A DNA stretch of 64,000 bases from the NCBI GenBank assembly GCA_045837725.1, contig JBEWZL010000149.1, positions 1 to 64,000 of the forward strand, read 5' to 3'. The position numbers were made by a program, and so were the translations under genes. The notes below the pieces were generated by a model. It saw only the letters and a program-made list of their open reading frames with translations, was not told where the DNA came from and searched no databases. The DNA is from Vermamoeba vermiformis. Taxonomy: Eukaryota. Positions 5,868 to 40,325 of this stretch are shown one piece after another. Position 1 is the stretch's first letter. The number at the start of each line of letters is the position of its first letter.

Positions 5868-8427
5868 CTATCCAAGTAAATAGGGAGGTAACTCTTTGTC
5901 AAGAGTCCACGCAGAAAAGTAGGACGCATGTAGATACGTCGGAGATCTACAATCTGCTTTAATCACACTCCAGCTCTTCTCCAATGTCGAAGTAGTAGGA
6001 GCTCTTTTGATTAGAGAGGAATAAGGAATGTCGCAAAACAGAAGGGCTGGAATCAGACGACATATCTCAAGGAACTTGAACATATCGCTCTTGCACCTAA
6101 ACAACAACTGCTTGAGCTCAAAGCAGATTTCTTGTTTAAACTTACGTTCGAAAGGCTTGCTTAGGGGCCTTTACACCAACTAGTCGTCTAGGAAAGCAAC
6201 CAAGACGCTCAAGTTTGATAAACATTGGATGCTTCACAAGTTTGTCAAACAGTGCCGAGTTAACTGCTTGCGAAAGAGCTGATGTATTTTTGGAACCAAA
6301 TTCGGATCTGTTGGCAAGCTCTGCGGTAATGTTGCATGACCAAGAATGCAGCACAGTGCAAAGGACGAACATAACCAGTTTCACTTTGATCTGAATTATG
6401 GTAAAATATCAGCTACGGCATTCTCGTAGCTAGTTTTTTGGAAACTTGCCTTAAGCTTCGCTTGTTGCGGGAGAGTATCCTCCAAAGTCAATGCCACCCA
6501 GTTTAGCATCGCTTCTTTGTCTGCTCCTGCCAGTGTTGGATCAAGCCAGCTTCGCAAAAACGGTTTTGGAATGGCCTCCACATTAACCTTGTTGAATAAT
6601 GAAAACTCTTTGACGGCATCGCTTTGAAGGGTCTCGTGTACAGCAATGAAGTACTCCGATTGAAAGTGAGTTCGTTCGTGAAGCTCCAAGAAGAATTCCT
6701 TGCTAGTTTCTAGTGTCCAACAATTAGAAGCTGAGATTTATAAGTATAAACTCCTACCCTCCACTTTCAGTTCAGCTAACAACAAACCAAACGCAACTGC
6801 AGGAGCATCCTCGATCTCCATATCATCGGCGTCAGTGTTTTCCTTATCTTTAGTTCCTGCGCCCTTTTCTTTTGCTTTATCATCGGCTTTGCCCTTGTCG
6901 TTAACATCATCTTCGTCGAGAAGCATTTTGAGTTCACTTATTTCGTTCTTTTTTGGTTGGGCTTTTGATTTCTTCGGCTTCTTAGGCTCTTGGAATGAAC
7001 GGTCAGAGTTCTCATCAAGTTCCACAACAATAGCTCGCTTTTTCTTGCTCTTGGTCGGGCTCGCAGGAGGCTCATCGGCATCAGAACTCTGCGAATCGAT
7101 AGTGGTTCGCTTTTTCTTTGGCTTGGTCGGACTTGCAAGGGACTCGACATCGTCAGAATTCTGCGAGTCTGACTCTATGCTATCGCGCACTTCGACTGAA
7201 ACATAGTGACGAAGTTTCACTGTATAAAGCCAGTTAGCAAAGTGCATATACATCCCTCCAATAACATACCAGACTTCTCTTTCAAGCGCATTGCCACAAG
7301 CTTGTTAGCCTCAACTAAGAACTGAGCATCGATGGAACTTAGATAGTGCATGCAAACTTCGAACAGAGCCATTGGATCTGGTGAAAGTTGTAGTTAAGCA
7401 ATTGATTACTAGGGTTCTAATACGCACCATTTGCAGTCGCCAAAAGAGACTTTGCAAACTTAGTGAGATCTATTTGCAAAAAAATTAGCTATCAGCGGTC
7501 CATAGCTACTTTTTCCTTACTGTTATTGCTTCCATCTCCCTTAGACTTGGTCGGAGAGGATAACTCTTCATTGCTCTCCTCGTCCTCCTGGTCGCTATAA
7601 CTTTCTTCGAATCCATTGCCATCATAGTCGTCAGTTACTTTCTCGTTCAGGTTGAGCTTATCGGTCTTCTTTGGGTTCGGTCTAAGATTGCCTCTTCGTG
7701 GTTTGGGACTGCTGATGCTTAAAGCCTCGGATTGGTTCGACGAGGCACTTGAAGCCTCGGATTGGCTCGATGAGGCACTTGAAGCCTCGGATTGGCTCGA
7801 CGAGGCACTTGAAGCCTCGGATTGACTCGACGAGGCATCATCTTCCTCCTCTTCTTCTTGCGAATCTTTTGAATGCGACTCAACCGAAATGTCCCGCTGC
7901 TGTAAAAACGAATATCAGATCCCTATAGCTGCTTTTTGGCGCGCTCTGTATTGCAAACTTACCACCAACTCTGAAGATCGATTTCCGTCGCCAGTCGCCT
8001 TGTGCCTCGATTGCCGTGAGCTCATGTACTTTTGCAACACCTTCATGCCCTCTTCGATGCTCTCTTTGGTCACTTTCAACTCCGGCCAGGTATCAGACAC
8101 CCACTGAGCGATATCATCCTGAGAAACAAAAGATTTATCGAGCATGTAGTGCGCGTAAAAGGTACTCACCCAGATTCTTCCCGGATGAGGGGTGGGTACA
8201 TTGTTTTTAGCGCCAATATCTGCCACGGTTAGTGTAGACACAATCTTCTTGATTTCTCCCAAAAGAGTATCGTGGGGAATCATTTTGAAGAGTGCAAACT
8301 TACTAGATACAAAATCCAAAAAAAATTCTAATTTCTGTTTAAAATTGGATTTGCTGAAGTCTCCCGACGAGACATTTTCGTTTAAGATCTTTTTAAGACT
8401 AGTGATTGCTTTTTGTATATCAGACAT
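5868..8427 (-). CDS. Orphan multi-exon protein A (roughly 730 aa) with Ser/acidic/basic low-complexity middle
   Basis: Starts MSDIQKAITSLKK at 8427. Exons join through short introns (e.g. 7962-7900, 7520-7470, 7269-7221, GC-AG 6449-6391). Has NLS-like PTKPKKKR and PTKSKKKR. Stop at 5868. Confidence 0.6.
7720..7838. repeat. 30-bp coding tandem repeat x4 (ASSSQSEASS on the minus strand)
   Basis: GAAGCCTCGGATTGGCTCGACGAGGCACTT repeated four times with few changes. Confidence 0.9.
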
Positions 8428-11999: not shown

Positions 12000-13156
12000 T
12001 TACATAAAATCATCGTCCATGAAATCAGAAGGTGATTCTTCGCCACTTTCGTCACCTTCTTCATCCTCTTCCTCTTCCTCGTCGTCCTCTTCCTCGTCCT
12101 CGTCTTCCTCCTCGTGTTCTTCCTCGCGCGAGAGCGATTCTACATCCGAACTATCTGAATGTTCGGAGTTGTGCTGTGGACCGCGTACCAGCTGTTGGTA
12201 TTTGACGTGATACGCATCAAACAGAGGGATAGTGTTTGATTCTGTATCTAGCTGCTTTATCTCGGCCACGTCCACGCCAAACTTCGCAGCAATGACCTCG
12301 GCGATATCTGGAAAGGCACTCCAGCCTTTCTTCAGCCTTTCAGTGGCCGTTTTCTTGCGTAATTCACTCTCGGAAAGAAGCTTGTGATCGCCAACAGCAA
12401 CGGGCTCAGATTTAATATCATCGCGACGAAAGAGCTGTAGATTATTTAGTAAATAAATAGTTAAAAGTTTTATTAGTTCGGCGTACCTTGAGAAAAGACT
12501 TTTCTTCTTCTTCCACGAGGTCGGCTTCGATAATATCCACGAGCTTCAGTCGTGCGATCGTATTTCTAATCAATTAATAATTTAGAACAGTAATAAAAGA
12601 GTTACCTTATTTTCTGAAGCTGTTCCATCTTTGAGATCTTCGTTTTTATTTGAAGTAGCGTATTGATATCGTTGATATCGAACCAATACCCTTCGCGTTT
12701 GCTTTGGTGAAGCTTGACGTTGGGGCCTAGCGAGCCTACGGGAAGTTTTTCACCTACGAAAAATAGCTATGAGGATCTGATAGCTAGATTACACACGTTA
12801 TTACCTAATCCTCCAAGCTTTGCATATTTTTTAACAGTAGGGCAGGCAATGCCAGTAATCTCGTTTACCCCGACCACCGTGCAGCGCAAATCTTGGTTTT
12901 CCTCGTCAACGAGGAAGTCTTCTTCAATTAACCTGTAATAAATTAAAGCGTCAGGAATTTTGTAATTGAAATCAAAATATTATAATAAAATATAAAACAT
13001 CGTGTGGATTAGAAACTGGAGACGTAAAAAAATTAATTAATTAAAATAAAAATTATTTCAGTTCGAGTTCGTGATCCGGATCTGGAAACTTTCAATTTTA
13101 AACGCAAAGCACTGATATTAAAGAATTTTATGCGTTACTTACTTAAAGTTAGCCAT
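12000..13156 (-). CDS. Orphan protein with long acidic C-terminal tail
   Basis: Starts MANFK|LIEEDFLVDEE; 5 exons join in frame (introns ~13142-12933, ~12804-12754, 12605-12566, 12486-12436). Ends EEEHEEEDEDEEEDDEEEEEDEEGDESGEESPSDFMDDDFM*. Confidence 0.7.
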
Positions 13157-13241
13157 CGTGTTGCAGTTTTTCCGTCACGTGTTTGTTTGTGTTCTCGATC
13201 TGAGCAATTTTACAAAAATCTTCCGAACGAACACCTCAACT

Positions 13242-15912
13242 ATGTCACGAAGACGTAGTTATCAGTAAGTAAGCGTTATATTTCAACGTAAATACTAATT
13301 AAAAATATTTAGGGCCTCAGACGATACTTTGATCCGGGCAATGTAAGTTTTTTAATTTAAGAAATAATATTATTAAAAATAAATTAAATATTCGTAATTA
13401 AAATTAGTTAAAGCATTGTTATATTACAAAATTAATAAGTAATAATTACGACTAAAATTTTATTTTAAAAAGGGCTCGAAACACTACGTACGAGACGACC
13501 GTCAACGACATTGAAGCACGGGTCAGGCGAGAGGAGCAACAAGCTGCCGACAGAGCCGCTCGGCTAGCATCTCGCAATGGGGAGCGTGCGAGTCAAGAGA
13601 GCGCAGGGCAGCAAACTCGTGGAAATGGACGCGGTCGTGGTCAAAGCCAGAACTCTAGTGGTAGTCAATCTGGGCGCCGCCGCCCCCCGCGAAGAACAAG
13701 AGAGCAGTCGCAAGGACAAGCCGACCCTGATGCGACGCAGCTAGTTTCGTCGGCACCGCCAACGCAGGCACTACCGCCAAACAGTTCAGCTAGCCAGGTA
13801 CGTTAAAAAACTAGCTACGAGGGTTTGATAGCTAATATTTTTCACGTAGGAGGGCAATGACCAAGCATTGGTGCCTGAACCTTCGAACACCAATGTGATG
13901 ATACCTGAGCCTGATGCAGTGAGGCAAGACAACCAAAGTGCCTCACGGGAGAACGAGCGCATTGTCCCGCCAGAGTCAAGCAGTGGGGAGAAAGCAAGCC
14001 AGCACTCTTCGGGGGAGAATTCAGGTGTCGGTCATTCCGAGTCTGGCAGCGGCAAGCAATCGAGTGGCAGTGCATCCCAGAATAATGCCAACGTTATCCC
14101 TGAGTCTGGAGATGGTGTTAATTCGTTGCCTGACGGTGAGCAGGAAAGTGCGGACTCAGCGAGCCCCTCTCCCAGCAGCGCCGTTGGCGCTGATCAATCG
14201 AATGCGGACTCAGCGAGTCCCCCTCCCAGTGGTGCAGAGCAATCCAATGCGGACTTAACGAGCCCCCCTCCCAGTGGAGTAGTTGCCGAGCAATCTTCCT
14301 CTGTTGAAGGCTCAAACCAAGCCACTCCGGGGCAGGTGAGAAAAAACCAGCTACAGGAAGCCAATAGCTAATATTTTATAGGCAAGCAATGCTGTTGCAA
14401 GTGGTGTGGTGCCAAATGACTCAGCTGGCTCATCTCAGGACATTGAAAGCGCCCAGGTAAGTCAACTTTTCCTTTCCTTTACCTTTGTTCTAACTAATAA
14501 CCTACAGCGACCTCGAAATAACATTGATTTGGATCAGCCAATGGCTTTATCTCGTTACATCAACCACATCACGTTCACCAGTGGTGAACTTGAGGAGAAA
14601 ATAGACCTGCCCTTGGCAAACGAAGGGCGGCAGCTATCAAGCTCCGCGTCAACACCACAACCGCGAATGGTATGCTGTTATTAGTTTAAGATAAAAAACT
14701 AAATTTATCTATTTTAGACGACTCGCGCAGCATCTGCTCGTGAGGAGGATGTGACCGAGCAGATTGAGGACACAGAACTTCAGTCTGGCCCACGAGAAAA
14801 GTCTGCAGCTCCCAAGAAGTCCTCACCAAAGAAAAAGTCTACGCGGGAAGAGAAAAGCCAGGAGGAGGAGGATAACGAGCAGCCTCGTGCAAGAGATGCA
14901 GCCACCAAGTCCCCGGCAAAGAAGAAGAGGGTGGTGGAAGATAGCGAGGAGGAGGAAGAGCGACCTCCTTCAAAAAAACCAGCCTCCAAGTCCCCATCAA
15001 AGAAAAAGCAGGTGGGCAAGGTGGACGACGAGGAGGAAGAGCGGCCTCGGTCAAAAAAAGCAGCCTCCAAGTCCCCGTCACCAAAGAAAAAGCAGGTGGG
15101 CAAGGTGGATGAGGAGGAGGAAGAGCGGCCTCGGTCAAAAAAAGCAGCCTCGAAGTCCCCGTCACCAAAGAAAAAGCAGGTGGGCAAGGTGAGCGACGAC
15201 GAGCGGCCTCGGTCAAAACATGCAGCCTCCAGCAAGTCTCCGGAAAAACCTTCTGGAAAACGAAAAGCTCGCGATGGGGACAGTGGCGAAGATGAGCCTC
15301 CTCAAAAAAAGGTACGCATCTAAAATTAAAATTGTTATTGATAACTAACTTTAGTATTTGCAGCGAAAAGTACAGCCGTACTTCGTGAAGAAGGTTCAGG
15401 TCTTGAAGCATGCCCAGTACGATCCTAATGTGGATGAACTTGTGGCCAAGTACCGACAGGATCACCCCGGGACAACAAAGAAGGAGGCCAAGGAACAAGT
15501 CGAGAAACAAATTGCCAGGCGGCGAAAAAAGGACCGCAAGAAAAGAAGTAAGTTATTAATTATTTTTAAATGCTGACTTTAACTTGCTCTTGTAGAGTAC
15601 ATAGAAATGAAGAAGTACCAGGAGAGCGACGGTATTTTCTTCGCCAGGTCTCGCTTCCAGAGAATTGTCCGCGACATCACTGCTGATGTCGGACAAGAGT
15701 ATAGGTTCCAGAGGAGTGCTCTGGAAGCTCTTCAATACTCCTCGGAAATGTTCATCACGAACGTTTTCGAGATGGCTACCTTGGCGACCGTTCACGCTGG
15801 TCGCCAAACATTGCAGGTCAATGACATGCGATTGGTGTACAATGTACACAGCATGGCAGAAGGATCTGCAATTCATTTGTTAAAAGATCGACTTCAACAG
15901 AGTCGCCAGTAG
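13242..15912 (+). CDS. Giant histone H3-like protein (~731 aa; C-terminal H3 histone fold, ~630-aa disordered N-terminus)
   Basis: Nine exons (13242-13264, 13313-13342, 13473-13797, 13850-14335, 14382-14456, 14508-14669, 14718-15311, 15364-15547, 15596-15912) total 2196 nt in frame. The last exon IEMKKYQES...RFQRIVRDITADVGQEYRFQRSALEALQYSSEMFITNVFEMATLATVHAGRQTLQVNDMRLV aligns without gaps to H3 REIRRYQKS...[30 protein letters not shown]...HAKRVTIMPKDIQLA. Confidence 0.85.
14860..15245 (+). repeat. ~75-84-bp coding repeats (EEEEERPRSKKAASKSPSPKKKQVGKVD) x~5
   Basis: Visible in ORF 14751-15323; several copies are nearly identical at DNA level. Confidence 0.9.
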
Positions 15913-16002
15913 TCCCTTGTAAAATAAATGGGTTTTTTATATCTACAGTCGCAAAAGCAGCTATGGGAATCCTATAGCTATTATTTTCGTGTCAGTAGTT
16001 GA

Positions 16003-16489
16003 TAGACCGTCCGATTTTCGTACGCCTGTCTTGGACTGGTGAAAGAGACCGTCCGATTTTCGTACGCCTGTCTGCGTGTGGTTAAAGAGACCGTCCGACT
16101 TTCGTACGCCTATCTTGGACTGTTTAAAGAGACCGTCCGATTTTCGTACGCCTAGCTTGGACTGGTTAAAGAGCCTGTCCGATTTTCGTACGTGTACTTG
16201 GACTGGGTACACAGACCGTCCGACTTTCGTACGCCTGTCTTGGACTGGTGAAAGAGAGCGTCCGATTTTCGTACGCCTATCTTGAAGGGCTAAAGAGACC
16301 GTCCGATTTTCGTACGCCTGTCTGCGTGTGGTTAAAGAGACCGTCCGACTTTCGTACGCCTATCTTGGACTGGTTAAAGAGAGCGTACGATTTTCGTACG
16401 CCTGTCTGCGCGTGGTTAAAGAGACCGTCCGACTTTCGTACGCCTATCTTGGACTGGTTAAAGAGAGCGTACGATTTTCGTACGCCTAT
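16003..16489. repeat. 42-bp tandem array, ~12 copies, partly alternating variants
   Basis: Unit AGACCGTCCGATTTTCGTACGCCTRTCTTGGACTGGTTAAAG starts at 16004, 16046, 16088, 16130 and onward. CTGCGTGTGG and CTTGGACTGG variants alternate. Confidence 0.95.
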
Positions 16490-16586
16490 CATATGACATT
16501 AAAAAAACAGCTATAGAAACTTTGTAGCTACTTTTTACAATATTTTATTTTTAACCCTCTCACCCCCAAACCCTAAAGCTATATTA

Positions 16587-16985
16587 ATTGGTCAGGGATC
16601 GTCTGATCTTCAGACGAATGGTCAGGAATTCTCAGAAATTGGTCAGGGATCGTCTGATCTTCAGACGAATGGTCAGGAATTCTCAGAAATTGGTCAGGGA
16701 TCGTCTGATCTTCGGACGAATGGTCAGGAATTCTCAGAAATTGGTCAGGGATCGTCTGATCTTCAGACGAATGGTCAGGAATTCTCAGAAATTGGTCAGG
16801 GATCGTCTGATCTTCGGACGAATGGTCAGGAATTCTCGAAAATTGCCTGGGATCGTCTGATCTTCAGACGAATGGTCAGGAATTCTTGAAAATTGCCTGG
16901 GATCGTCCGATCTTCAGACGAATGGTCAAGAATTCTAGGAAATTGGTCTGGGATCGTCCGATCTTCGGACGAAAGGCCTAGAATT
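16587..16985. repeat. 51-bp tandem array, 8 copies
   Basis: Unit TGGTCAGGGATCGTCTGATCTTCAGACGAATGGTCAGGAATTCTCAGAAAT, degenerating rightwards. Confidence 0.95.
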
Positions 16986-17586
16986 CTTCAAAAGTTTTAG
17001 GGTACTACCATCCCAGCCCTAGCCTTTTAAGTAGAATAATCATGTGGAAATGATCCAGCAAAAGAACATAAGAATAAATAAAAAAGTAAGTTTATTATTT
17101 TGCCTAATTATTTTAATTATAATTGATACTGATATTGTTTTTGTTTGCAACAGCTTTGACTTCACTGGTCTTCTGCATGCATTATGTGTTCCAAAGCATC
17201 TTGGGCGTCATTGCCAATCTGACTAACATCTTCAAGGTGCCCATCTTACCTTTCAGCCTACCAGATCTCAAGAGTACTGGCAGGAGCAACTATCCTTGAA
17301 AGTTTCTTCATTTTCATCCATAGCATAGACTCACAGTCCTACACTCTGTAGCAACAGCACACTTTTGAAATACCATCAGAACCTATTTTGACACAACACT
17401 TGATTGTTGTAAGCCTTGCAACTAACTCTTCATAACAAACATCAATCCCTTGAGTTGCATAAATATCAAATATTATTGAGATAGCCCCAGCCCCAATCAA
17501 GTAAAGCTTGAAACACATGTTTTTGCAGGATTTTTTATTTGAAACAGAGTTTTTTACACTACAATCACTGCTTTCCAACATTTTCT

Positions 17587-20934: not shown

Positions 20935-22187
20935 TTATTCGTGACTCGGCTCGGATTCCTCCGATTGATCTTGGTCCACCATTGTCACACCGTCGGTGGG
21001 TTGGGTCAAGGCACCCATTTGCTGCTGCGGCATTGGGAATGAAATGACATATGGCCGTCCTTGTTGTGCTTGTTGAAGTGCCATAAGCTGTGAAGTAGCG
21101 TTAAAAACGAATGAGCCTGAAATTTCAGCAGCTGTTTAGGGCTGCGACACGTACCTGTTGTTGCGACACCATGAAGACGGTATTGCCACCGTGAGCGTCG
21201 GGTAAACTGTAATACTGCGGCATGTACTCGCCCATGCCCTGCACCAGTCCCATAGCGCGCAGCTCGTCTGCAGATTGCTGCTGTTGTTGCTGAATAAACT
21301 GAAGGTAAATTACGTGTACAAATGCAATTGATAACAGACTACGATGCAGGCCGCCAAGTAGGCTCCTCAACCAACGCTCAATGCTAAAAATGATTTGCTT
21401 TTGTGAGAACTTACTGCTTTCTTGGGTTTGACAACGTCCTCTCGTGGCACGATGTCGATCAAAAAGTCATAGCTGTCTGTCTTCGCTACCGCCAGTGCCA
21501 CATCGTTTTTCTATTCGCGGTTAAGAACGTAAATTAGCGATAAACCAATAATAAACGGCAATAATTAGCTACCTGTAATGTCTTCCTTCGGTTCTCATCT
21601 GTGTTCAACCATGCCCGCAACGTCAATTCTCGCAAAAATAATTCGCAGGCCTTTGAAAATAAATCGAGTACTTCGGCACTAATCATCTGTAGAATAAGAC
21701 GTTAGTACGCGGGCGAATTAATCATGAAGTCTTGGAAAAACAGTCCTCTTGTTAAAATATCGATTATAAACCGTTAATAATTCCAAAAATATTATGACAA
21801 ATATTTCTACAATAAATTACGTTCAAATTTAGCATTTTCGGCAGATCGAACAATAATGAAAATTGTTCATAATAATTAAATAAAGCTTACCTTGACGTCT
21901 TCATCTGACTTCATAATTTTTTTAATTCTTGAAAGTGGTAACAAGTGGTTTTTAAGTTCAGGGCCGGACATAGCTTCAATCTCTTGGGAGATCTGCTGCC
22001 AAAAGCTGTTTAAATTTAAACTCTGTTGATACGCTGCCGGTAATTGAATGCCCTGTGGGGCTTGTGCGGTAGGTTGAAACCGATCTCCAACCAAATTTAA
22101 CAGAGGATCGGTTTGCACCGAAACAGCATGATCTCCGTTGGTCGGTGCCTCTTCATGATTATTATTATTAATTGGCCTATCTGTCAT
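20935..22187 (-). CDS. NFYC: Nuclear transcription factor Y subunit C (HAP5)
   Basis: HLLPLSRIKKIMKSDEDVK|MISAEVLDLFSKACELFLRELTLRAWLNTDENRRKTLQ|KNDVALAVAKTDSYDFLIDIVPR with a Q-rich tail. Confidence 0.92.
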
Positions 22188-22290
22188 TATCGTATCATGC
22201 GTGTTTTTCCAAAGGTCAGCGCGGGGACAAAAACCAAAAAAGATTGACACACAAATCAAATATTTTTTTCAATTCAAATAACAAACACAA

Positions 22291-27492: not shown

Positions 27493-30400
27493 CTAGTTTT
27501 TGGCGTTCGTATTATTGGAGTTGTTATCACCCTCAATTACTGGCGTATTATTGTTCTTCACCTCAAGGTTACCGACACTGCCAGATCGCTTCAGCATTGC
27601 AGCAGACGACGATCGCACGAGTTGAGGCTTGTTGTCCTTTGTCATCACGACTGTGGTGTCTTCATTCACATCGTTGTTGCGAAGATACAATGCATGCTCA
27701 ATCGTGTTGCGAACAACGAAACGAACAATGGTGATTTGTTTTGTTTGTCCTTGTCTGTATGCACGACCGATGGCTTGTGACTCGATCGCCTGTGCCTCTT
27801 TCTTCGTGCCTGTCACGGGATCTGTAAAGAGACAAATTAGACATCCACTGTCAATTGATCATCTTCGTCATTGTTTACTCACCCATGAGAATGACATGCG
27901 TTGCTTCGACCAAGTTGGTTCCTGATGCAGCGTTCTTGAGCGACAACATGATCACTTTGACGTCCTCGTCTTTCTTGAAATTGGTCAATGCTTTTGTTCG
28001 CTTCCAGATATTTCTGCTCGATCGTCAATTAGAAAACTACTCAATCAACAAGACAGCGCCAAGTACTTGCCCTTCAACGAACACGTTGGGCACACCATAC
28101 TCTGTCAAGATTTGCGAAACATTTGTCAAGGTATTCTCAAACTGTAATATCTTAAGTAAGTAACATTGCTAGCAATATAACGGAGGCCGACTGACCTGAG
28201 AGAAGAAGATGACGCGACTGTCGGGCTTGCGTTCAAACAACTTCTTCAGATAGACAATCATTTGGACTAATTTGGTGCCATGCCGCTCAATGAGCTCAGC
28301 GTGTTCTTTTCGTACCTGTAACAAACCGCGTTAGACTGAAAATAGCAATGTGAAAGGAAACAAATACCCTGGAACCAGAAGGAGGCACTTTCAGAGCCAT
28401 TTCAAGGACCTTTTTGTGGTGCTCGAGAGTTGCCTTGGCTTCCACTAGTTCTTTTTTTCTATTCTCGAGCACTGTTAATGCAACTGCTTTTTTGAACGCA
28501 TCTTGCTCGGTATCGAAATATCTCTGCGCTCCTGCCAAAGCAGCGATTGCCTTGGGAACACCATGCTTCTCAGAGTACTCGAGGTCATTCTGATAAGAAG
28601 GAATAAGCGGCGCTAAACATAGTTTTTTCGACGTACTCTGCAATTGTTTATCAATGCGGCAAGTCTCGCATCAAGCGTCGAGGTTTGTAGCAAAGAGCCG
28701 CACATCCGAGATTGATCCTCTGAAAATTGCGTTAAATAAAAATAGGGATATTAGCATACTGTTTATGTACCTTCTTTACGTTCATTGGCATAGAGCACCT
28801 TCTCGATCTCGTCGAATTCAACCAGCACAAGATCCTCAACGTAATCTGGAATTTTGTATTCGCCTTGGACAGACGCCTAAACATGTTTTAAGAAAGAACA
28901 GATCAAATAAGCTTTAAGAGTAAATACCTTGGTGTGTCTCCAGTACAACTCGCGCAACATCAGATCCGTCATTAAGGTTCTAAGAAATCAATGTTATGCA
29001 CCCAATCAACTGCATTTGAGCGTTATTTGGACTTACTCTTGCTGTTGTGTGTACTGCTTGTAGCTGCTCTGCACGCCAATGAGTCGTTTCACGTACTTGA
29101 AGTGGTCGCTGCAAATGATTAGATCCGGTACTACTCGGTCACACTCGGTACTTACTGCGTCGGGAATGGGGTGCCAGTGACGTACCAAGCGAATCTGCTG
29201 AAGCACGTGCTGATAATGTAGTTGAAGTACGGCTTGGCCAAGTACTCGTGACCTTCATCGAGCACAATTCTGTGCCAGTAGAAATGTTCTAAAATAGGGC
29301 ACTTCTTCTTCATGCCTTGCTTGCTTCGCTTGGTCTCCTGCGTGAATACTTTAGTATCGTGATGAAGTTGGGCGAGACATGCTGCTGACCTTCAGACTTG
29401 ACTCGACCCATTCGGACCGCTCTGCCTCTTCGTGTTGACGAATGCTCGATCTTTTCTTCTCGCTCGACTCCAAGAAGAAATATTTGGGGTTTTCAAGGAG
29501 CTGGTACGAAGCAATGACGACGTCGTAATCTATAAAGTCTTGGTACGAAAACTTTTTCAGTTGTACGATGGTAGCTGCCACCGCTACTTTCAGCGTAGTT
29601 GCTTTGGTCAACTCGTCACTCCATTGCGTTACGAGATGATTCGGACATAAAACTGCACAACAAGTCAGACTTTCACGCCAAAATACACGAATCACTTACC
29701 CAATGTAGCACGAGAGGTTATCAAGGCACGGTGTTTGGGCAGTTTAATGGGAGGAGGACTCGCCAAGATCAATCCGACCACTATTCAGAAGTGAATAAGA
29801 CAAACCCATCATTGTAATTATTTGACAACTTACTCTCCAACGTCTTGCCAAGACCCATCTCGTCAGCTAGCACTGCACCCTTTGGCAGTGCAATATCAAC
29901 GTACTTTTCGAGGTCAGTGACGACATTCTTTCTCTGTTCTTGCAGGTCAAAGAGCAATTCAGTCTTGGCTCGTCTCCAAGGATACGCTGTGAAGTACGGA
30001 AGACCTGTGAAATACTGTTAGAAACAACCATTAATCGCTTCGCACTACTCACCGTCTTTGTTTTCTTCGATCGATTTCATCCAGGCAATTGCGTCAAGCT
30101 GATATTTGTACAACTTGATCTCGTCCTTGAACCCTTCAGGCTGTTGTTGTGCCGTGAGCGAGCGCTATTTGAAAGTGTTAAAATCCCGTGGCATATTTTG
30201 AAACGAACTTACTCGAGGAATGGAAGAGAATTTTGAAGAGCTAATGCTCGTCAGTCTTTGCAAGAAATCTGATTCCACCAACGGGTAGATCAGCTTCATG
30301 CCAGGAATGGCGGGCTTCTTATCCTTTTCGTGATAGCTGAACGGATCGTAACTGGCATCGAACTGCGCAATAAGTTCCTCCAACCTGCCAAATAACGGTT

Positions 30401-31472
30401 ACATTTTAATTTCAGAAGATCTATATGCATACCTTTTAATGTTGATCTCGATGTCGACAATCCACTGATCGTTTTCGGGCGTTGTATTTTTATAAGTATC
30501 ATAACCGCTGAGCTCTTTCACTTCTTCGGCAGTCGCTTTATGTATGCGGTAAGACCACAGCTCTGGATCAGAGTTCAATTGTACCCAGTCAATGGGCAGA
30601 TCTAAATGATGATTGAGTCGAACATTGGGGCGTTTCGGTTCGGCGTAGCGAACAACGAGGCCATCTTCATTGCGAAGCTCGAGTTTATCGTAGTATTTCG
30701 ACAAGGGAACTACAGTGACTGGTGCACCTGGATTTTCTTGCAAGAATTTGGATTTGTATTGTTGCAAAGTTGCAATCTTTTCATCAGCTGACAACGCCCC
30801 GCTTGCCATCATGAAACGTTGCCCTGTTGTGTCGAGTAATTTAGACGCGCCTCGTAAAAATTTAAACTTACCCTTGTAGTGATCGAAGTAAATGCTTGCA
30901 TCCTCCAGCAATACTATGGAATGAGCAAGATGCCAGCCCAATGATTGATCGTGCGTCAAACGAAGCCACTGACGACAAGTCAAGCCAACCGCGTGCAATT
31001 GCTTTCTTGTAAGACCAGTGAAGATTTGCAATACCAACTCGTCTGGAAGCGTGTACTCTTCTTCTCCCAAGGACTGGTAAGCACTGCTGTCCGCTGAGGC
31101 GAGGAGCTTATTGAGAGCTGTCACTTTAAGTTCGGACAAGTCGGTTTTTTTTCTAGGATTTAAAACTGCCCAATCATCCGCGTCTTCTGCGCTGTCGTCG
31201 TCATCGGCATAAGAGTCATCGTCGGCGTCGGCTGCTTTTTTCTTGGAATTATTTTTTGGCTCATCCGAGTCAGAAATATCTTCTTCGCTCTCTTCGCTTT
31301 CTCCTTTTTTCTTTTTTTTATTATTGGTCTTTTTTGGGACAGAAGAAGATTTTTTGGTGATTTTCTGCTTTTTCTTAGGTCGCTCTTCCTCTTCGTCCGA
31401 CGGATCGTCCTCTATTATCGCTACCTTGCGCTTTCTTGCTAATCTGTTAGATGTACGTGTATTTGTAAGCAT
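27493..31472 (-). CDS. F-box / SNF2-family helicase, paralog 1
   Basis: F-box TLPDELVLQIFTGLTRKQLHAVGLTCRQW; YKYQLDAIAWM, GAVLADEMGLGKTLE, WHRIVLDEGHE, AASGTNL, ESQAIGRAYRQGQ. Confidence 0.88.
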
Positions 31473-31605
31473 AATGAGTTCCGTTGGCGACCTGTGGTGT
31501 TTTGATCTGAAAAGAAATTAAAGTGCCGTTCACTTCGGCGTAAAAAAAAGTGTCAAAACGGCCACAAAAAAAAACATGACACACAGCTTTTATTTAAACA
31601 ATTGG

Positions 31606-34600
31606 CTAATCTTCCATAATGTTGTTATTATTGTTCGGCAAAACGTTGGTATTATTCACTTCCTCCAATGGTCTCGCAAAACTGCCTGAGCGTTGCAACG
31701 TCGTGTTAGTAGCGACGAGTGAAGTCAAGCTAGCTGTTTTGACGAGTTGAGGCTTGTTGTCTTTTGTCATCACGACTGTGGTGTCTTCATTCACATCGTT
31801 GTTGCGAAGATACAATGCATGCTCAATCGTGTTGCGAACGACGAAACGAACAATGGTGATTTGTTTTGTCTGTCCTTGTCTGTGTGCACGACCAATGGCT
31901 TGTGACTCGATCGCTTGTGCTTCTTTCTTTGAACCTGTCACGGGATCTGGAAAGAATGATCAGCGTGGCGATCAAGCGTTGTGTTTAGCGGAAACTTACC
32001 CATGAGAATGACATGCGTTGCTTCAATCAAGTTCGTTCCCGAAGCTGCATTTCTCAACGACAACATGATCACCTTAATATCATCTTCGTTGCGGAAACTA
32101 GAGATGGCTTTGTTTCGCTTAAATACGTTTCTACGCGAGTTGCATTAGCATTCGTATGAAGAAGATTTTTATCATTTTCGCCTTACCCTTCTACGAAAAC
32201 ATTGTCTATGTTGTGCTCAGACAAAATAGCAGAGACGCTGTTCAAAGTGTCGTTGAACTACGGATGTGTTAGCAAGGAATTACGAGACCGATGATGTGTG
32301 CGTACCTGCGAGAAGAAGATGACCCTGCTCTTCGGCTTGTGCTCGAATAACTTGCGCAAGTAAACGATCATTTGAGAAAGTTTTGTTCCGTGTTGAGAAA
32401 TGAGATCCGTAAGATCCGTTTTGTTCTGGTGTCCCCGGTTAGTTCATTTAGATACCAAAGTGATTACCCTGTTTGATTTCGTACCTTGGTACCTCTCTTC
32501 TTGAATGGCACGACCTTCTTAGCCATTTCAAGCACCTTTTTATCGTGCGCGAGCTGTTGTTCAGCCTCGGCAAGTTGGTCCTCTTGCTTCTTGAGCACAC
32601 TTTGCGCTAAGCTCTTCTGCAAAGTATCATTCTCAGTCTCGTATCGACGCTTAGAAGCAGCAACAGCCTTCACCAAGTTAGGAATAGACTTCTTAAGGCC
32701 CGGAATGGACCCTTCCTTGCGTGTAATCAGCTGTGCTAATCTGTCGTCCAGGCCCATGTCATGCAGAATAGATCCGCAAATACGAGATTGGGCTCCTGTT
32801 TAAATGTGTTAGTCTATTGATGCAACAAGAGACGACGACCACTACCTTCATCGCGTGCATCAGCGTATAAAACACTCTCAATCTCGTCAAAGTCCATCAA
32901 AACCAAGTCTTCAACACACTCAGGGATTTGATACTCGCCCTTCACTGTCTCTTTCGTGTGTCTCCAGTACAACTCTCGCAACAGCAAGTCAGTCAACGTG
33001 CTCCTAATAGATGTTAGGACAGTTCTCTCACTCTAAACAACATTGTAGACGTACTGTTTTTGCTCTCCCCAAGCATGGCGATTGCCCCAATAGTCATTGT
33101 GTTTTACTGGATCTGGTGTTTCTAGACCAAGGAACTCTTTGACTCTCGTGAAAAGGAATCTGACGAATAAATTAAGTACACTTGCATTACTACACGCAGA
33201 GATACTTACAAACTCGGAAACGGTGTGCCAGTCACGTACCACGAGAACCTGCTTTGGTAGGTCCCAATGACGTATTTGAAATACGGTACGGCCAAGTACT
33301 CGTGACCTTCATCCAACACCAGTCGATACCAATAGAAATGTTCCAGAATGGGGCACGTCTTACCCAGTCCACCGTTTTTGCCTGATTTGATTGTCTGCCG
33401 TGCGTTAGTAGCAATAACAGTGCTTAATAACTTGCCTCAAGACTAGACTCCACCCAAGCTGTTCGTTCAAGTTCTTGCTTCTTTTTAACGTTGGTCTTCT
33501 TAGCGACATTAGAGCCGAGGAAGAAATAATTAGGGTTTTGTAACAGCTGATAGGACACAATGACGACATCGTAGTTCGTGAAGTCTTCGTACGAGAACTT
33601 TCTCAGTTGAACAATTGTCGTGACCACCGCAACCTTCAGGTCAGTCACTTTCGTTAACTCGTCACTCCATTGTTTTGCCAAGTGATTAGGACACAAAACT
33701 ACGAACGCAAAGTTAGTACTAGCAATAGCTCGTTGATTTAACAATACCTAACGTAGCGCGAGAGGTGAACAACGTGGGGTGTTCCAACATCTCAGCTGGG
33801 GCAGGGTTGGCAAGTACAAGACCGATCACTGCCAGGATTAGTCGCTGTTTAGATTATAGTAATAAGTAACAACTTACTTTCCATCGTCTTGCCGAGACCC
33901 ATCTCGTCAGCGAGCACACCTCCTTTAGGCTTTGCTACTTCGACGTATGCTTCGAGGTTAGTCACAATTTCTTTCTTGGCAACGTCAAAGATGAGTTCAG
34001 TCTTGGCTCGTCTCCAAGGATACGCTGTGAAGTATGGGAGACCTGTGCAAGTCAATGTGAGAACACACGACTTAAACTTGCTATCGGTGTCACTCACCAT
34101 CTTTGTTATCTTCTACGGACTTCATCCACGAGATTGCATCCAGCTGATATTTGTAAAGCTTGATCTCGTCCTTGAACCCTTCAGGCTGTTGTTGTGCCGT
34201 GAACGAGCGCTGTTTAAAGTCAGTACATGAAGTGGAAGTCTGTCTCGTCGTACCTTAGGAATAGATGACTGTTTTGTCGAGCTGATCGTGTTCAGTTTGT
34301 CAATGAAATCGTATTGCACGAGATGGTAGATGAAATTCATGCCCGGTACTTCTTTTTTGCTTTCAACCAGTTGTTCCAGTCTAACCAAAAACATTACATT
34401 AGTGACCGTTATATTTAACAAAATGAGTACCCACCTCTTCACATTGATTTCAATATCAACGATCCATCGTCGTATGTCTTTGTATGCATCCGAGTCAGAG
34501 TAAGACATGTCCCTGGCCTCGTCGTCGTCGAATATTCCAGAGTCTTTGACTTCTTGTTTCGTAGCCTCTCTGATACGATAGCCCCATAAATCCGTGTTGT

Positions 34601-35738
34601 TATTGAGTGCTGTCCAAGGTATGTTATTGATCGTGTAGCGATGGAACTTGTAAGAGTACGGCACGAACAGCTCTGCTAAAGCCACGACATCGTCTTTCTC
34701 ATCTTGAAGTTGCATCACTTCGCCATATTCACCGCCTTCACCATCATCGTTGTAATGGAAGTGCCACGCGTTGCGAGGTTTGTGGAAACGAATGGTGACA
34801 GGAGTGCCCTTGTGCTTCGCCATGAACTCTTTGCGAACCAAGATGTGCAGCTGGTCCTGCTCATCCCAGTCGTAGTTGCTTATCTCGTCGCGCTTCTCTT
34901 GAAACTCTGCATACAGACGTTAATCATCACGAAGAAATTATCATCAAAGGTAGAACGTACCATCAAGTTGAAGGTAATATTCAACATTCTCCATTAGAAC
35001 GGTAGAATAGGCGTTATGCCAGCCCAATGACTGATCGTTGCTCAATCGAAGCCATTGACGGCATGTCAAACCAACGCCATACAGATCTCGGCGTCGTAAG
35101 TTTGAAAATATTTGAAGAATTAACTCGTCAGGCAACGTGTATTCTTCATCCTCCAACCTGTGATTATACTTCGCTGCCTCTCTAGTTGAGGTCAATTTAC
35201 GCAATGCTGCTGCTTTTAGTTCGGCTGGATTTGGCTTGTCTTCGGTAGAAGTCTGGACATTTGTATTGTTTTTCTTTGCCGGCTCTGATTTTCTCTTGGG
35301 TGATATTATTTTAGGTGCCTTTTGCTTTGTTAAATAACTTGTTTTCTTTGGGCGCGGTTTTTTGACCTCGATCTCTTCCGAACTTTCTGAAACTGATATT
35401 GAACTGCTTGAACTCTCATCGTCGCTTTCTTCTACTACGATTTTCTTCGTTGCTCTGGCAGTTGCCTTTTTAGCAATTTGCCTTTTTGGCGGCTTTTTTG
35501 CTGCTGATTTTTTTAATTCTTGATCTGATTTTTCATCTTCGCTGCTACTGCTCTCCGACGACTCTGCCTTCTTTTTTGTAATTTTGGCGATAGTTTTCTT
35601 TGCTGGCGCTTTTTTTATGACTTTTTTTTCAATTTTTTGTTTTTTCTTTGGTCGATCTTCTTCTGACAGATCTTCAACTTCATCGGCTTTTCTTTTCTTG
35701 TTAGCCAATCTCGAAGATACTCTTGTTTTTGGAGGCAT
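31606..35738 (-). CDS. F-box / SNF2-family helicase, paralog 2
   Basis: TLPDELILQIFSNL..CRQW; GGVLADEMGLGKTME; VLDEGHE; ESQAIGRAHRQGQ. Confidence 0.88.
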
Positions 35739-35844
35739 TTTGCAGCTCCTATGGTATCAGCCACAAGTTCGGAGAAAAAATGCAACGAAATTTTGAACAG
35801 CAATTTTAAATGACCGATGGTACAAGGTACCTGGTAAAATCAAA

Positions 35845-38800
35845 TCAAACATTAGTGTTGTTCGTCTGTTCTTCCGCGATATTGCCCAAACTAGTCGATC
35901 GTCTTAACGCCGCATTGCTTGCAACCAACGAAGTCAAACTGGATGTACGTACGAGCTGTGGTTTGTTGTCGGAGATAACAACTGTATTATCCTCGTTGAC
36001 ATCGTTGTTGCGAAGATACAATGCATGCTCAATCGTGTTGCGAACAACGAAACGAACAATGGTGATTTGTTTTGTTTGTCCTTGTCTGAATGCACGACCA
36101 ATGGCTTGTGACTCGATCGCTTGTGCTTCTTTCTTTGAACCTGTCACGGGATCTAAAGAACGTTAGCCACTCGCAGCCTTATAATATCATATAAGGTGTG
36201 TTACCCATTAATATGATGTGCGTCGCCTCTACCAAATTCGTTCCCGAAGCTGCATTCCTCAACGACAACATGATCACTTTAATCTCGTCCTCTTCTCTGA
36301 AACTCTTGATGGCACGAGTACGATTGTGGACATTACTGCATAAATGTTATTATTGATCAAAAAGGCAAATCTAATAAACTTACCCTTCCACAAATACATT
36401 ATCAATACCGTTCTCGTACAAAATGTCGGATACGGTGTTCAGAGTGTCAGTGAACTAATTAAGAATTAATGAATAAGAACGCCAATGCATTATTGATGGA
36501 CTTACTTGCGAGAAGAAGATAACGCGACTATTCGGCCTCTGAGCGAATAATTTTCTCAGATAAACGATCATTTGCGTCAATTTCGTTCCGTGCTTAACAA
36601 CCAGCTCCGCCAACTCGCCTTTTTTCTAAGAGTATTGTTTAATCCTGATACTTGCTAGTAAAAATGACTTACTGTACGGTCTTTAAAAGGAATAGTTTTT
36701 TCCAGGGCTGCCAAGACAAGTTTATCGTGCGCTAGTTGGTCTTCAGCCTCGGCAAGTTTTTTCTCTTTCTTTTTCCACAAATTTTGCGCGACGCCCTTCT
36801 CCAAGCCATTTCTCGTCGCTTCATAATCCTCCTTCGCCTTCGCAACTTCTTCCCTCAGACTGGGTATCCTCGCCTTGAGCGATGAGATAGAAGACTAACA
36901 AAAAAGGTCAGCGCTGACTGACAACAGTTGTTCAGTGGGCATAAGTCTTACTTTCTTCTTTTCGATTTCCCCCTTGCGTTTTTCGTCCAAGCTTTTCTTT
37001 TGAATCAACGAACCACAGAACTGTGACTTGGACTCTACGTGAATAAATGAATTAGAAACGCCATCACTCTTGCAGAGTCATCGTACCTTCATCGCGTGCA
37101 TCCGAGTACAAAGCTGACTCAATCTCGTCAAAGTCCATCAAAACCAAGTCCTCGACACATTCAGGGATTTGATACTCGCCCTTCACCGTCTCTTTCGTGT
37201 GTCTCCAGTATAACTCTCGCAGCATCAAGTCCGACAGGGCAGTTCTAAGTGCTGTTAGCACATCACGTAACAACATGGAAAACGTACTCTTGCTGTAAGC
37301 CGAAATTCCATCCAGTCATCATTATCTCGCCCTCCAAACTAATGCCTAAGAACTTGCGCACTCGCTTGTACATATCACTACCAGCTATATTAGTACAGTT
37401 TACAAGCGACGAACGTAACTTACATCTTTGGGAATGGAGTGCCCGTGACGTACCACGAGTACCGTGAAGAGAAGGCTGAAATTGTGTTCTCGTAAAATGG
37501 AACGGGCAAGACTTCATGACCTTCGTCCAGTACAATTCGGTGCCAATGAAAATGATCGATGATGGGCGACGAGCCTTTGGTCCAGTCCTTTTTCGTTTTG
37601 ATGCTCTACCCCTCGTTAGCAAAAGAGTACGTGCATTTGTTCGACTTACATCTAAGTACTGGGCCACCCAGGTAACTCTCTCGATCTCGCTGCCCTTCTT
37701 GACACTTTTGCTGGATGTAGCAGCACCGAGGTGAAAGTAGTTTTGATTTTGCAAGAATTGATACGACACGATCACCAAGTCACTATTTATGAAGTCTTCG
37801 TACGAGTATTTGCGATGTTGGGCGATAGTTGTTACGACAGCAACTTTGAGTTGAGGTGCTTTTGCTGCTTCAGCTTGCCATTGATGGGTCAAGTGACTCG
37901 GACATAGCACTACAAAACAACATTAGAATGACGGTAATTTAAACAGGTGAGCTTACCAAGAGTAGCCTTCGAGTTGATTAAATGAGCGTGTTCGGTAACG
38001 TCGGCAGGAGCAGGGTTAGAAAGGATTAAACCAACAACTGTGGTGGCGTTGCCGTTAGCTTACTTGCAATCAAACCATTGTCATACCTTCAAGAGTTTTT
38101 CCAAGACCCATTTCATCAGCCAATACGCCACCTTTGGGTTTGGCGATCTCAACGTACTTGATCAACTCTTTAGCTATGCGTTTATAATGTACGTCGAAAA
38201 TGAGATCAGTCTTCGCGATACGCCATGGGTAAGCATTAAAGTACGGCAAACCTGGTGGACTATAATCAGCCTTGGTTCCAGCACTATAAGGTATCGATTG
38301 GCCTTACCTTCCGTATTATCTTCAACAGATTTCATCCAGGCAATTGCGTCAAGCTGATATTTGTACAATTTGATTTCATCGTTGAATCCTTCAGGCTGTT
38401 GTTGCGCCGTAAATGTTTTCTATGCTGTTGTTAGATTCGAGCTCCTAGTAACGAAGCGAGTTACTTACGCGTGGAATAGAGGACTGTTTGGCTGAACTAA
38501 TCTGTTGAAGTTTGCGACAAAAATCAAGCTCTACGAGGGTATAAATAAACTTAATGCCCGGCACTGCCTTCTTAACTTGCACCAATTTTTCCAACCTGAT
38601 TTACACATTAATGAGATAATCACCATGACACATCTTACTTACACTTTGATATTAATTTCAATATCCAGGAACCAAAATCTCACATCATTATCCTCGTCAT
38701 CTTCATCGTCGTTGGGAATTTGAAATTCGCCTTCTTTGATTTGATTGATCGTACACGGTCGAATTCGGTAGTGCCACAGGTCAGGATTATTGTTGAGATC

Positions 38801-39862
38801 TTTGCACGGAGGGAGAAAGTTACCGAAATTGTATTGCATGTTTACGGTTGGCGGAAAAATATCTGCAAAGGCAACTACATCTCGGTTACTGTCGCGCAAT
38901 TTGATGAGACGCCCACACGTGTAACCCTCTTCGACACTGTCTTCAGGATTATCTTCCGCCCAACTGAGCCACCGCATATTTTTACTATAGTGGATCGTGA
39001 CAGGCTTGCCAGGGTGTTTTTTCATGTAAGAGTTGTAACAAGCCCGTTCCCATGCAGTCTGTTCTCCTTTCGTACGAAAATGATTATTTCTTCTTCCTCC
39101 CTTCTTTCGTTCAGGGTCTGTTTAGCGATAAAAATTAGTATGTTTTGCGATCTGAATTTGACCGTCAGTTGTGTTTGCTTCTGAGAAGGCAATCGTCCGA
39201 AAGTCAAAGTCAAAAAGTGAGCCGAAAGTGAGCTTACCTTCGTACGCAGAGTACGTATCCATTTTTTCTCGCAAAGTTAACGTGAGCGCAAGGTGCCAGC
39301 CAAGCGATTGATCATTGCTCAAGCGATACCACTGACGACACGCTAAAGCAACTGAATACATCTCACGTCTCTTCAAATACGATAATATCTGAAGAATCAA
39401 CTCGTCAGGTAGGGTATACTCTTCGTCTTCAAATCGTGTTGCTATTTGACGTTGCTCTTTGAGTGTTGTCAAGCGCTGCAGAGCTTTTTCTTTTTGAGCT
39501 AGATCTTCGGCAATTTTGATCGAGTCATCAGCAGTAACTGTATTCGTTACAATTTTAGACACTGCTACTTTTTTAGCTCGGCGTGAAGGGCGCCCTGAAT
39601 CAACTGTCGATGTTTGATCCATCAAATCATTTTCGGCGGTTGTTGCAACATTAGTGTCACTATTATTTTGTGATTTGATATCATTATTATTAACAACCGA
39701 CTTGCTAATTTTTGGCACTTTAGAATTTCTTTCTTTTTTTTCTGGTTCAATTTTCGCTTTCTTTTTAGGTCGATCTTCTTCCTGGTTGACTGGATCCTTC
39801 TCAATTTCCTCCGCCTTTCGCTTCTCGGCTAATCTGCCTGATACCCTCGTTTTGGGTGGCAT
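35845..39862 (-). CDS. F-box / SNF2-family helicase, paralog 3
   Basis: TLPDELILQILSYL..CRQW; GGVLADEMGLGKTLE; VLDEGHE; ESQAIGRAFRQGQ. Confidence 0.88.
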
Positions 39863-40325
39863 TTCTGGTGGTCAACTGTAGTTCTTCGAAAAATGATCGT
39901 TTTTTATCAATGCAAAAAGGTTATTCGCGACAACGCCGTCTTTTCATCACAACTTATCGATGCATCACAACACACCGTGCATAATTTATACAAACTTTTG
40001 CAAATCTCAAATAACGAACGTTTACATCCATTCTTAGGGCGCAGAATGGGAATAATGGATCTAAAACTTGCCCGTTACTCGTTTGTTCGGTAAGGAAAAC
40101 TCCACGAAAGCATGCAGTGCTTAAATAACAAACGGCAATATTAAATCGAAGCAAAGCAAAGATTTATTTTGGAAATATCATTTGGATTTGAACTAAAAAT
40201 TCAATTTTTCTCTCGTGGTCCTCGCGGTTCGATACTATTTAATAAGTTTTATTTGCGACACATAATTATTTAAATTTTCGAACAATCGGATCAAGCACAA
40301 CTTACTTGACTCTAATCCGAAAACC

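Follow-up and report, generated by a model that had tools for sequence, protein, structure and literature searches.

A predicted nine-exon gene for a 731-residue protein

The stretch of DNA analyzed here (the window) comprises the first 64,000 nt of contig JBEWZL010000149.1 from Vermamoeba vermiformis (GenBank assembly GCA_045837725.1), and our subject is a predicted gene on its forward strand, at 13242-15912, whose product would carry a histone H3-type fold behind an exceptionally long N-terminal tail. Rebuilding the gene independently from the sequence, we joined nine exons into one frame of 731 codons closed by TAG, 2196 nt in all (Table 1). All eight introns begin with GT and end with AG; their sizes are 48, 130, 52, 46, 51, 48, 52, and 48 nt, and in each a branch motif resembling CTAAY or CTGAC can be read 10-25 nt 5' of the AG. 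The gene structure overall is one of introns of roughly 50 nt with CTAAY motifs, at 42% G+C. The G+C fraction lies between 0.39 and 0.61 in the individual exons, versus 0.12 to 0.35 in the introns, and this contrast in composition supports the predicted nine-exon model. In an independent donor scan, seven of the eight donors matched the scanned pattern, the remaining one being GTGAGA, and a single frame ran through all eight junctions. The 51-nt intron after exon 5 contains no in-frame stop, so its retention would preserve the frame.

Several traits of the gene are those of histone variants: the eight introns, an AATAAA past the stop codon, and no histone stem-loop from Rfam. Across the window, no match to an Rfam family passed the gathering score, so the search turned up no histone 3' stem-loop. 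On the other side of the gene lies a divergent minus-strand neighbor, with its ATG at 13156, 5 codons, and then a GTAAGT donor. The 85-nt spacer between the two start codons is presumably the promoter for both genes.

Table 1. Features of the predicted H3-fold gene and its immediate flanks, in window coordinates
Feature	Position	Strand	Description
Spacer between two divergent ATGs	13157-13241	.	85 nt; presumed shared promoter and short 5' UTRs (untranslated regions)
Exon 1	13242-13264	+	23 nt; ATG start, 7 codons plus 2 nt; donor GTAAGT
Exon 2	13313-13342	+	30 nt; introns on either side have 0.21 and 0.12 G+C
Exon 3	13473-13797	+	325 nt; aa 18-126; start of the R/Q/S/G-rich tail; C7 run at 13677-13683
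Exon 4	13850-14335	+	486 nt; aa 127-288; S/Q/E/P-rich, K/R-poor; G5 run at 14007-14011
Exon 5	14382-14456	+	75 nt; next intron 51 nt
Exon 6	14508-14669	+	162 nt; aa 314-367; more hydrophobic patch of the tail
Exon 7	14718-15311	+	594 nt; aa 368-565; five tandem acidic/basic units
Exon 8	15364-15547	+	184 nt; aa 566-627; no in-frame ATG; two predicted helices
Exon 9	15596-15912	+	317 nt; H3-type fold (alpha-N, alpha-1, L1, alpha-2, L2, alpha-3), 20-residue C-terminal extension, TAG stop
Predicted extra C-terminal helix	15865-15900	+	aa 717-728, after alpha-3
Putative poly(A) signal AATAAA	15923-15928	+	begins 11 nt past the stop

It is conceivable, although we consider it improbable, that the model joins what are really two genes. 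Exons 1-7 would then form a gene of their own, encoding a disordered nuclear protein, and the fold would be made on its own as a product of ~101 aa starting at the alpha-N Met, much like the 96-aa Dictyostelium H3v2, a short H3-like gene (PMC2995078). A reading frame continued through intron 7 closes 4 codons on, and the public protein collection holds this fold only as a 101-aa entry (P0001) that starts at the alpha-N Met, with several relatives similar. The junctions also have no support from RNA: three RNA-seq runs under the same species label (X21-X23, ~13 million records each) gave 0 reads over 12950-15990, which formally amounts to no test. However, P0001 and its relatives were called on short contigs without regard to introns, and their starts carry little information. 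Exon 9 has a good acceptor, and exon 8 (0.49 G+C, with introns at 0.25) stays open in the frame of the junctions and contributes a region rich in Lys and Arg, as expected directly ahead of alpha-N. Because exon 8 has no in-frame ATG, the fold needs a start codon from the upstream exons, unless the alpha-N Met is used. Finally, all eight junctions fall in one frame at consensus sites that the independent donor scan recovered.

We also compared the window with a contig from DNA run X1 (depth 38.8), which shows no base substitutions over 13088-15990 and is one base short at two places, 13683 in the C7 run of exon 3 and 14011 in the G5 run of exon 4. Both deletions are exonic, and either would truncate the product. 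Were the X1 version correct, the locus would be a decaying pseudogene, or an open reading frame that depends on the assembly, and would yield no full-length protein; the silence of the RNA runs, formally no test here either, would fit. We hold this to be very improbable. Both differences sit in homopolymers, where sequencing and assembly errors are typical, the frame of X1 closes within ~20 codons, and 731 open codons over nine exons are very unlikely to arise from two chance insertions. Since both gaps are in homopolymers and the frame of the window is open across nine exons, we take them as errors of the X1 contig.

The last exon encodes an H3-type histone fold

Among the exons tested, a family match was limited to exon 9. 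Its product (15598-15909, 104 aa) matched the Pfam family Histone (PF00125) at E = 1.8e-17, with 64.2 bits against a cut-off of 26.4. It also passed the cut-off of CBFD_NFYB_HMF, far more weakly (28.7 bits, cut-off 21.4), and fell below those of CENP-T_C and Bromo_TP. A phmmer search against the Protein Data Bank (PDB) returned 176 distinct chains at E<=0.01, and the best 60 of these 176 were all H3 chains (best E 6e-14). Judged by these sequence matches, exon 9 is an H3-type histone fold, which places the predicted protein in the H3 family.

The overall layout of the protein, a long disordered N-terminal region followed by a C-terminal histone fold, is also that of CENP-T. We considered and rejected this identity: the match to PF15511 (E 0.00016, 22.1 bits) lies below the cut-off of 28.1 and far below the 64.2 bits for Histone. 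The H3-specific alpha-N helix and the ungapped alignment to H3 mark the fold as H3 and not CENP-T.

Residues 3-83 of the exon 9 product align without gaps to positions 50-130 of nucleosomal H3, and over these positions 30 of 81 residues (37%) are identical to canonical H3. When the window product was aligned by MAFFT to 151 H3-like proteins plus an H3 reference, its divergence proved close to the extreme: among the 139 other full-length matches only P0076 scored lower (19/81), and the next were at 36-37/81. Despite this divergence, a number of positions are retained. Loop 1 has 0 extra residues relative to H3, and the equivalents of Q68 (Q648), F84 (F664), H113 (H693), and T118 (T698) are kept, while that of T107 is Ala. 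From our reading of the PDB alignment, the fold residues R69, R72, R83, R116, T118, and D123 are kept as well, and the H3 fold lysines K56, K64, K79, K115, and K122 are replaced by E, R, G, G, and N, respectively. Twenty residues extend past H3 position 131.

An AlphaFold2 model of exon 9, built from an 8-row alignment, had a mean predicted local distance difference test score (pLDDT) of 65.5 and showed alpha-N, alpha-1, alpha-2, and alpha-3, plus an extra helix at residues 90-101. This last helix is modeled at low confidence (block pLDDT 53-65), and its sequence is common to the closest relatives. Foldseek searches with the model returned nucleosomal H3 chains as the best PDB matches (E ~3e-3) and, in BFVD, nothing closer than an H2A-domain protein at E 0.013 and 32% identity. 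The ESM Atlas placed the fold in generic histone clusters only.

We also modeled exon 9 together with canonical H4, for which residues 133-222 of P0079 served as a stand-in. The complex scored 0.77, versus 0.00 for the best of three controls; of 78 solved complexes, 51 attain the mark used for this score, as do 2 of 108 mismatched pairs. The model runs agreed in at least 90% of contacts, and the partner pLDDT was at least 74. Given that H3 and H4 are a textbook pair and that a stand-in was used for H4, the result indicates resemblance to solved H3-H4 structures and does not demonstrate binding.

A long N-terminal tail with SPKK and acidic repeats

Ahead of the E50 equivalent lie 629 residues, and the best explanation of this N-terminal domain is that it is mostly disordered. 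Neither an ARTK nor an ARKS motif occurs anywhere in the 731 aa. The tail opens with an R/Q/G/S-rich region (aa 1-126), followed by a K/R-poor, S/Q/E/P-rich region (aa 127-313), the more hydrophobic patch of exon 6, the repeats of exon 7, and finally exon 8. Pfam searches with tail exons 3, 4, 6, 7, and 8 returned no family at E<=1 besides one meaningless match at 0.8.

The most regular part of the tail is exon 7, in which five tandem in-frame units of 30, 27, 28, 28, and 26 aa span 14805-15221. Their starts are spaced 90, 81, 84, and 84 nt apart, and a repeat scan gave a period of 84 nt with 4.4 copies. Each unit pairs a K-S-P-(S)-(P)-K-K-K block with an E/D-rich block finishing in RP. Six [ST]P.[KR] sites fall within aa 403-541; three of the six are SPKK, and the other three are further SPxK sites. 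A second, smaller repeat (family D8) lies in exon 4, where three in-frame units of 15-18 aa occupy 14131-14274 with starts 54 and 45 nt apart.

Exon 8 gave no alignment to H3 or H4. A single-sequence AlphaFold2 model of it (pLDDT 79.5) contains helices at residues 23-33 and 39-60, and the second is predicted to be a long, Lys/Arg-rich helix that continues into alpha-N. On the opposite strand, an antisense open frame of 237 codons (14839-15552, minus strand) covers exon 7, intron 7, and exon 8; we attribute it to the purine richness of the sense strand (AT skew 0.19 over 14001-16000) and do not regard it as a gene.

A preliminary description of this stretch, also made from its letters, had drawn much the same picture, and its structural claims hold up well. 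The in-frame joining of nine exons into a 731-aa H3-fold protein was reproduced in our independent rebuild and agrees with the Pfam Histone match. The reported absence of the canonical ARTK/ARKS tail, its replacement by SPKK/acidic repeats, and the retention of the Q68, F84, and H113 equivalents together with a loop 1 of canonical length were likewise all recovered here.

The fold belongs to a small clade of divergent H3 proteins

A full phmmer scan of 1.84 billion representative proteins gave 5622 matches at E<=1e-3. The best was P0001, an identical last-exon product of 101 aa on a contig of 593 nt. The distinctive sequence after alpha-3 is common to P0005, P0016/P0151, P0019, P0020, P0024, P0026, P0085, and P0076. 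These relatives are last-exon-sized products on contigs of 593-3033 nt, have their initial Met at alpha-N or shortly ahead of it, and are 36-62% identical to the window fold. Five of them (P0005, P0020, P0024, P0026, and P0076) carry Lys-rich C-terminal tails of ~10-45 residues that end in [AG]KK.

We placed the fold in a quick IQ-TREE tree of 149 H3-like rows and 95 columns, from which P0001 (identical) and the fragments P0016 and P0019 were left out. The window fold and seven relatives formed a set of 8 of the 149 rows, with an SH-aLRT (approximate likelihood-ratio test) support of 98. Loop 1 is longer than in H3 by 1 to 5 residues in all six relatives in which it is securely aligned (P0085, P0020, P0005, P0026, P0024, and P0151); in P0076 the alignment is ambiguous, with 0 or 2 extra residues. 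Position 68 reads G, Q, A, T, G, and A in the six, with Gln kept only in P0020, and position 84 reads W, W, W, W, I, and F, with Phe kept only in P0151. T118 is kept in all six.

Searches for longer versions of the protein were also made. A word-indexed search for longer proteins gave 0 matches among 105 candidates, and the sole match in a word-indexed search for near-identical proteins was the identical 101-aa product. A profile of nine family members, used to search for longer proteins, found 17 long H3-fold proteins, and in all six of those examined the C-terminal extension of the family is absent. A scan of GTDB genomes found no related locus. In JGI metagenomes, a first scan found none, and a second gave two loci, L001 and L002, that resemble CenH3 or H3 but are unrelated. 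L001 (1003-1428, plus strand, on a GC-rich metagenome contig) is an intronless H3 variant of ~140 aa that starts with ARTK and lies outside the clade of the window fold; on our reading of its open frame, loop 1 is lengthened and the tail is unusual, being rich in His, Arg, and Thr.

A candidate centromeric H3 with a giant tail

Centromeric H3 (CenH3) proteins are usually diagnosed by a divergent N-terminal tail, an extended loop 1, and the loss of Q69, F85, and T118 (PMC4359364; bioRxiv 10.1101/706580). CenH3 is nevertheless a functional class; on sequence grounds, its members and other divergent H3s are said to be "not clearly separable" (PMC3380720). CenH3 tails of 20, 39, 123, 130, and an "unusually long" 189 aa have been reported (bioRxiv 10.1101/2020.12.28.424576). 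The window protein shares with the CenH3 class an N-terminal tail unlike that of H3 in both sequence and length and a strongly diverged fold (30/81). Human CENP-A, yeast Cse4, Drosophila Cid, and Caenorhabditis elegans HCP-3 likewise combine a divergent fold with an unalignable N-terminal tail, a non-conserved C terminus, and an intron-bearing gene of the variant type. The window protein differs from the class in the size of its tail, 629 aa against the published 20-189 aa, and in lacking the usual diagnostics of an extended loop 1 and the loss of Q69, F85, and T118.

The closest precedent is the CenH3 of Dictyostelium (H3v1, DDB_G0291185), a protein of 619 aa with an unextended loop 1 that was localized to centromeres by GFP tagging and chromatin immunoprecipitation (ChIP) (Dubin et al. 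2010; PMC2995078), and whose tail is given elsewhere as "> 520 residue" (PMC9145170). Both proteins are very long (619 versus 731 aa) and carry the H3 fold at the extreme C terminus; in both, loop 1 is no longer than in H3, and the similarity to H3 is low for a histone. The comparison is made by published description rather than by alignment, and the Dictyostelium protein is centromeric by experiment, whereas the assignment of the window protein is a prediction. Neither SPKK/acidic repeats, of which the window protein has five, nor a C-terminal extension like its 20-residue one is mentioned for Dictyostelium CenH3 in the available text of PMC2995078.

Taken together, the locus is best explained as a nuclear gene of the host that codes for a very divergent H3 variant; it is real-looking and unusual, and its design has a precedent in Dictyostelium. 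We further favor, with a probability of roughly 0.55, the reading that it encodes the centromeric H3 of its host (CenH3/CENP-A class), with a giant tail of the Dictyostelium type. This reading is based on the H3 fold and its divergence, the hallmarks of the class in most members of the clade, the Dictyostelium precedent, the variant-type gene, the likeness of the modeled H4 pair to solved H3-H4 complexes, the host genes around the locus, and the description of CenH3 proteins as not clearly separable from other divergent H3s.

Several observations weigh against a centromeric role. The window protein fails four CenH3 diagnostics: its loop 1 has no extension, and it retains Q68, F84, and T118. 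Five relatives have Lys-rich C-terminal tails, and the window protein, which ends 20 residues past alpha-3, has none; moreover, the relatives are represented solely by last-exon-sized products on short contigs. The splice junctions are predicted from sequence, with 0 reads from the three RNA runs (formally no test), and the X1 version, if right, truncates the product at codon 108 (from the deletion at 13683) or codon 262 (from that at 14011).

The preliminary description had concluded from the same diagnostics that the protein is not a typical CenH3. This is true of the diagnostics of this one sequence, but the conclusion drawn from them is weakened because most members of the clade show the hallmarks, because Dictyostelium provides an exception, and because CenH3 is defined by function and is not clearly separable by sequence. 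It had also proposed that incorporation of the protein would give nucleosomes lacking the standard silencing lysines, which is correct in the sense that it would apply to any CenH3, and so points to no special property.

Alternatively, the protein could be a lineage-specific, non-centromeric H3 variant whose SPKK/acidic tail acts as a built-in linker-histone or H2A.W-type tail that binds additional DNA and compacts or marks particular chromatin (in cysts, spores, or the germ line, for instance), with the true CenH3 encoded elsewhere. We take this possibility seriously while judging it unlikely. The retained Q68, F84, and T118 and the canonical loop 1 would fit it. So would the three SPKK and three further SPxK sites in the five repeats, as the SPKK motifs of plant H2A.W tails, which wrap more DNA, are described as putative binders of the minor groove (PMC3380720). 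Stage-restricted expression could account for the absence of reads in the three RNA runs, formally no test on this point as well. Against it stand the relatives, with their loop-1 extensions, W84, and loss of Q68, and the Dictyostelium protein, which indicates that a giant tail and an unextended loop 1 are compatible with centromere function (PMC2995078).

The comparison with other H3s also bears on this alternative. The window protein shares the register of H3.1, H3.2, and H3.3 without gaps over positions 50-130 and keeps their Q68, F84, H113, and T118, but it is identical at only 30 of 81 positions, lacks ARTK/ARKS, and has 629 additional N-terminal and 20 additional C-terminal residues. With 37% identity in its fold, the window protein has diverged far beyond the replacement or tissue-specific H3s that are known to us. 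Repeated S-P-K-K-type motifs are found in the tails of sea urchin sperm H1 and H2B, and the plant H2A.W tails resemble the window protein in the same way. In those histones, however, the motifs occur in short H2A, H2B, or H1 tails, whereas here they alternate with acidic blocks in units of 26-30 aa within a 629-aa tail of an H3.

If the protein is indeed the CenH3 of its host, its fold would pair with H4 and replace H3 in centromeric nucleosomes, for which the key fold residues are kept. The tail, with its six CDK (cyclin-dependent kinase)-type [ST]P.[KR] sites, SPKK motifs of the minor-groove-binding type, and acidic blocks, may serve loading, kinetochore recruitment, or both, and the conserved C-terminal extension could be a surface read by a centromere partner.

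A more far-reaching proposal, which we offer as speculation and consider doubtful as a whole, is that the window protein and its relatives constitute an undescribed H3 subfamily defined by the conserved helix after alpha-3, fused in this case to a 629-residue tail with five SPKK/acidic modules. A single centromeric histone might thereby combine CDK-regulated recruitment of outer-kinetochore or loading factors, as in CENP-T and the C. elegans CENP-A tail, with binding of linker DNA; neither an extended loop 1 nor loss of Q68 and F84, thought typical of CenH3, would then be required.

A centromeric assignment would make this, after Dictyostelium, the second independent CenH3 whose loop 1 is unextended and whose tail exceeds 500 residues, and to our knowledge no other CenH3 tail has a regular SPKK/acidic repeat architecture. 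It would bear on which sequence features are needed for centromere targeting and on the role of long CenH3 tails. Automated surveys could score such an organism as lacking CenH3, because intron-blind gene calls yield a 101-aa fragment and the usual diagnostics reject the protein. A non-centromeric protein would instead be unusual as an H3 that bears motifs resembling those of linker histones.

Genomic surroundings

The neighboring genes include members of the F-box, SNF2, BTB, SH3, PAP2, UCH, P-type ATPase, CCT, aconitase, and RBR/Ariadne families. They are ordinary intron-bearing host genes, and nothing viral or transposon-like adjoins the H3-fold gene; no "island", a term used in the preliminary description, was found next to it. 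In the ESM Atlas, the Ariadne neighbor fell in plant-dominated clusters, with no usable taxon signal.

These flanks bear on whether the histone derives from an integrated giant virus or mobile element. Of the three best ESM Atlas feature clusters, one is commonest in Nucleocytoviricota (a lead only), and the Lys-rich C-terminal tails of some relatives recall those described for the H2A-like histones of medusavirus (PMC9145170). On the other hand, two pattern scans of IMG/VR for relatives yielded 52 and 39 candidate stretches, none of which was confirmed, and the best BFVD match was the one at E 0.013 noted above. The gene itself has eight introns of the host type and a host-like composition, with a divergent host gene 85 nt away and housekeeping genes around it. 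We therefore reject a viral or mobile origin, to which we attach almost no probability, on the grounds that the IMG/VR scans gave no viral relatives and the flanks are host genes.

Other features of the window were noted in passing. From 92 nt past the stop codon, two tandem arrays follow the gene, at 16004-16490 (42 nt x 11.6) and 16586-16987 (51 nt x 7.9, 93% matches). A second histone-fold gene lies on the minus strand at 21876-22268 and continues to about 21125; we read its exon as an NF-YC/CBF-type subunit, followed by a Gln-rich exon. The match of that exon to CBFD_NFYB_HMF (E 0.0066) is under the cut-off and is cut by the exon end.

Motifs like those of the exon 7 repeats recur elsewhere in the window. 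At 27496-40000 on the minus strand, a pair consisting of an SNF2-like helicase gene and an F-box-like gene is present in three tandem copies, and the F-box open reading frames (30402-31517, 34947-35756, and 39125-39871) have acidic starts followed by "RPKKK", a composition as in the exon 7 repeats. A minus-strand gene at 6741-7914 encodes S-P-T-K-(S/P)-K-K-K-R motifs together with Ser/acidic repeats. Tails that combine SPxK motifs with acidic stretches thus seem to be common among the presumably nuclear proteins of this genome.

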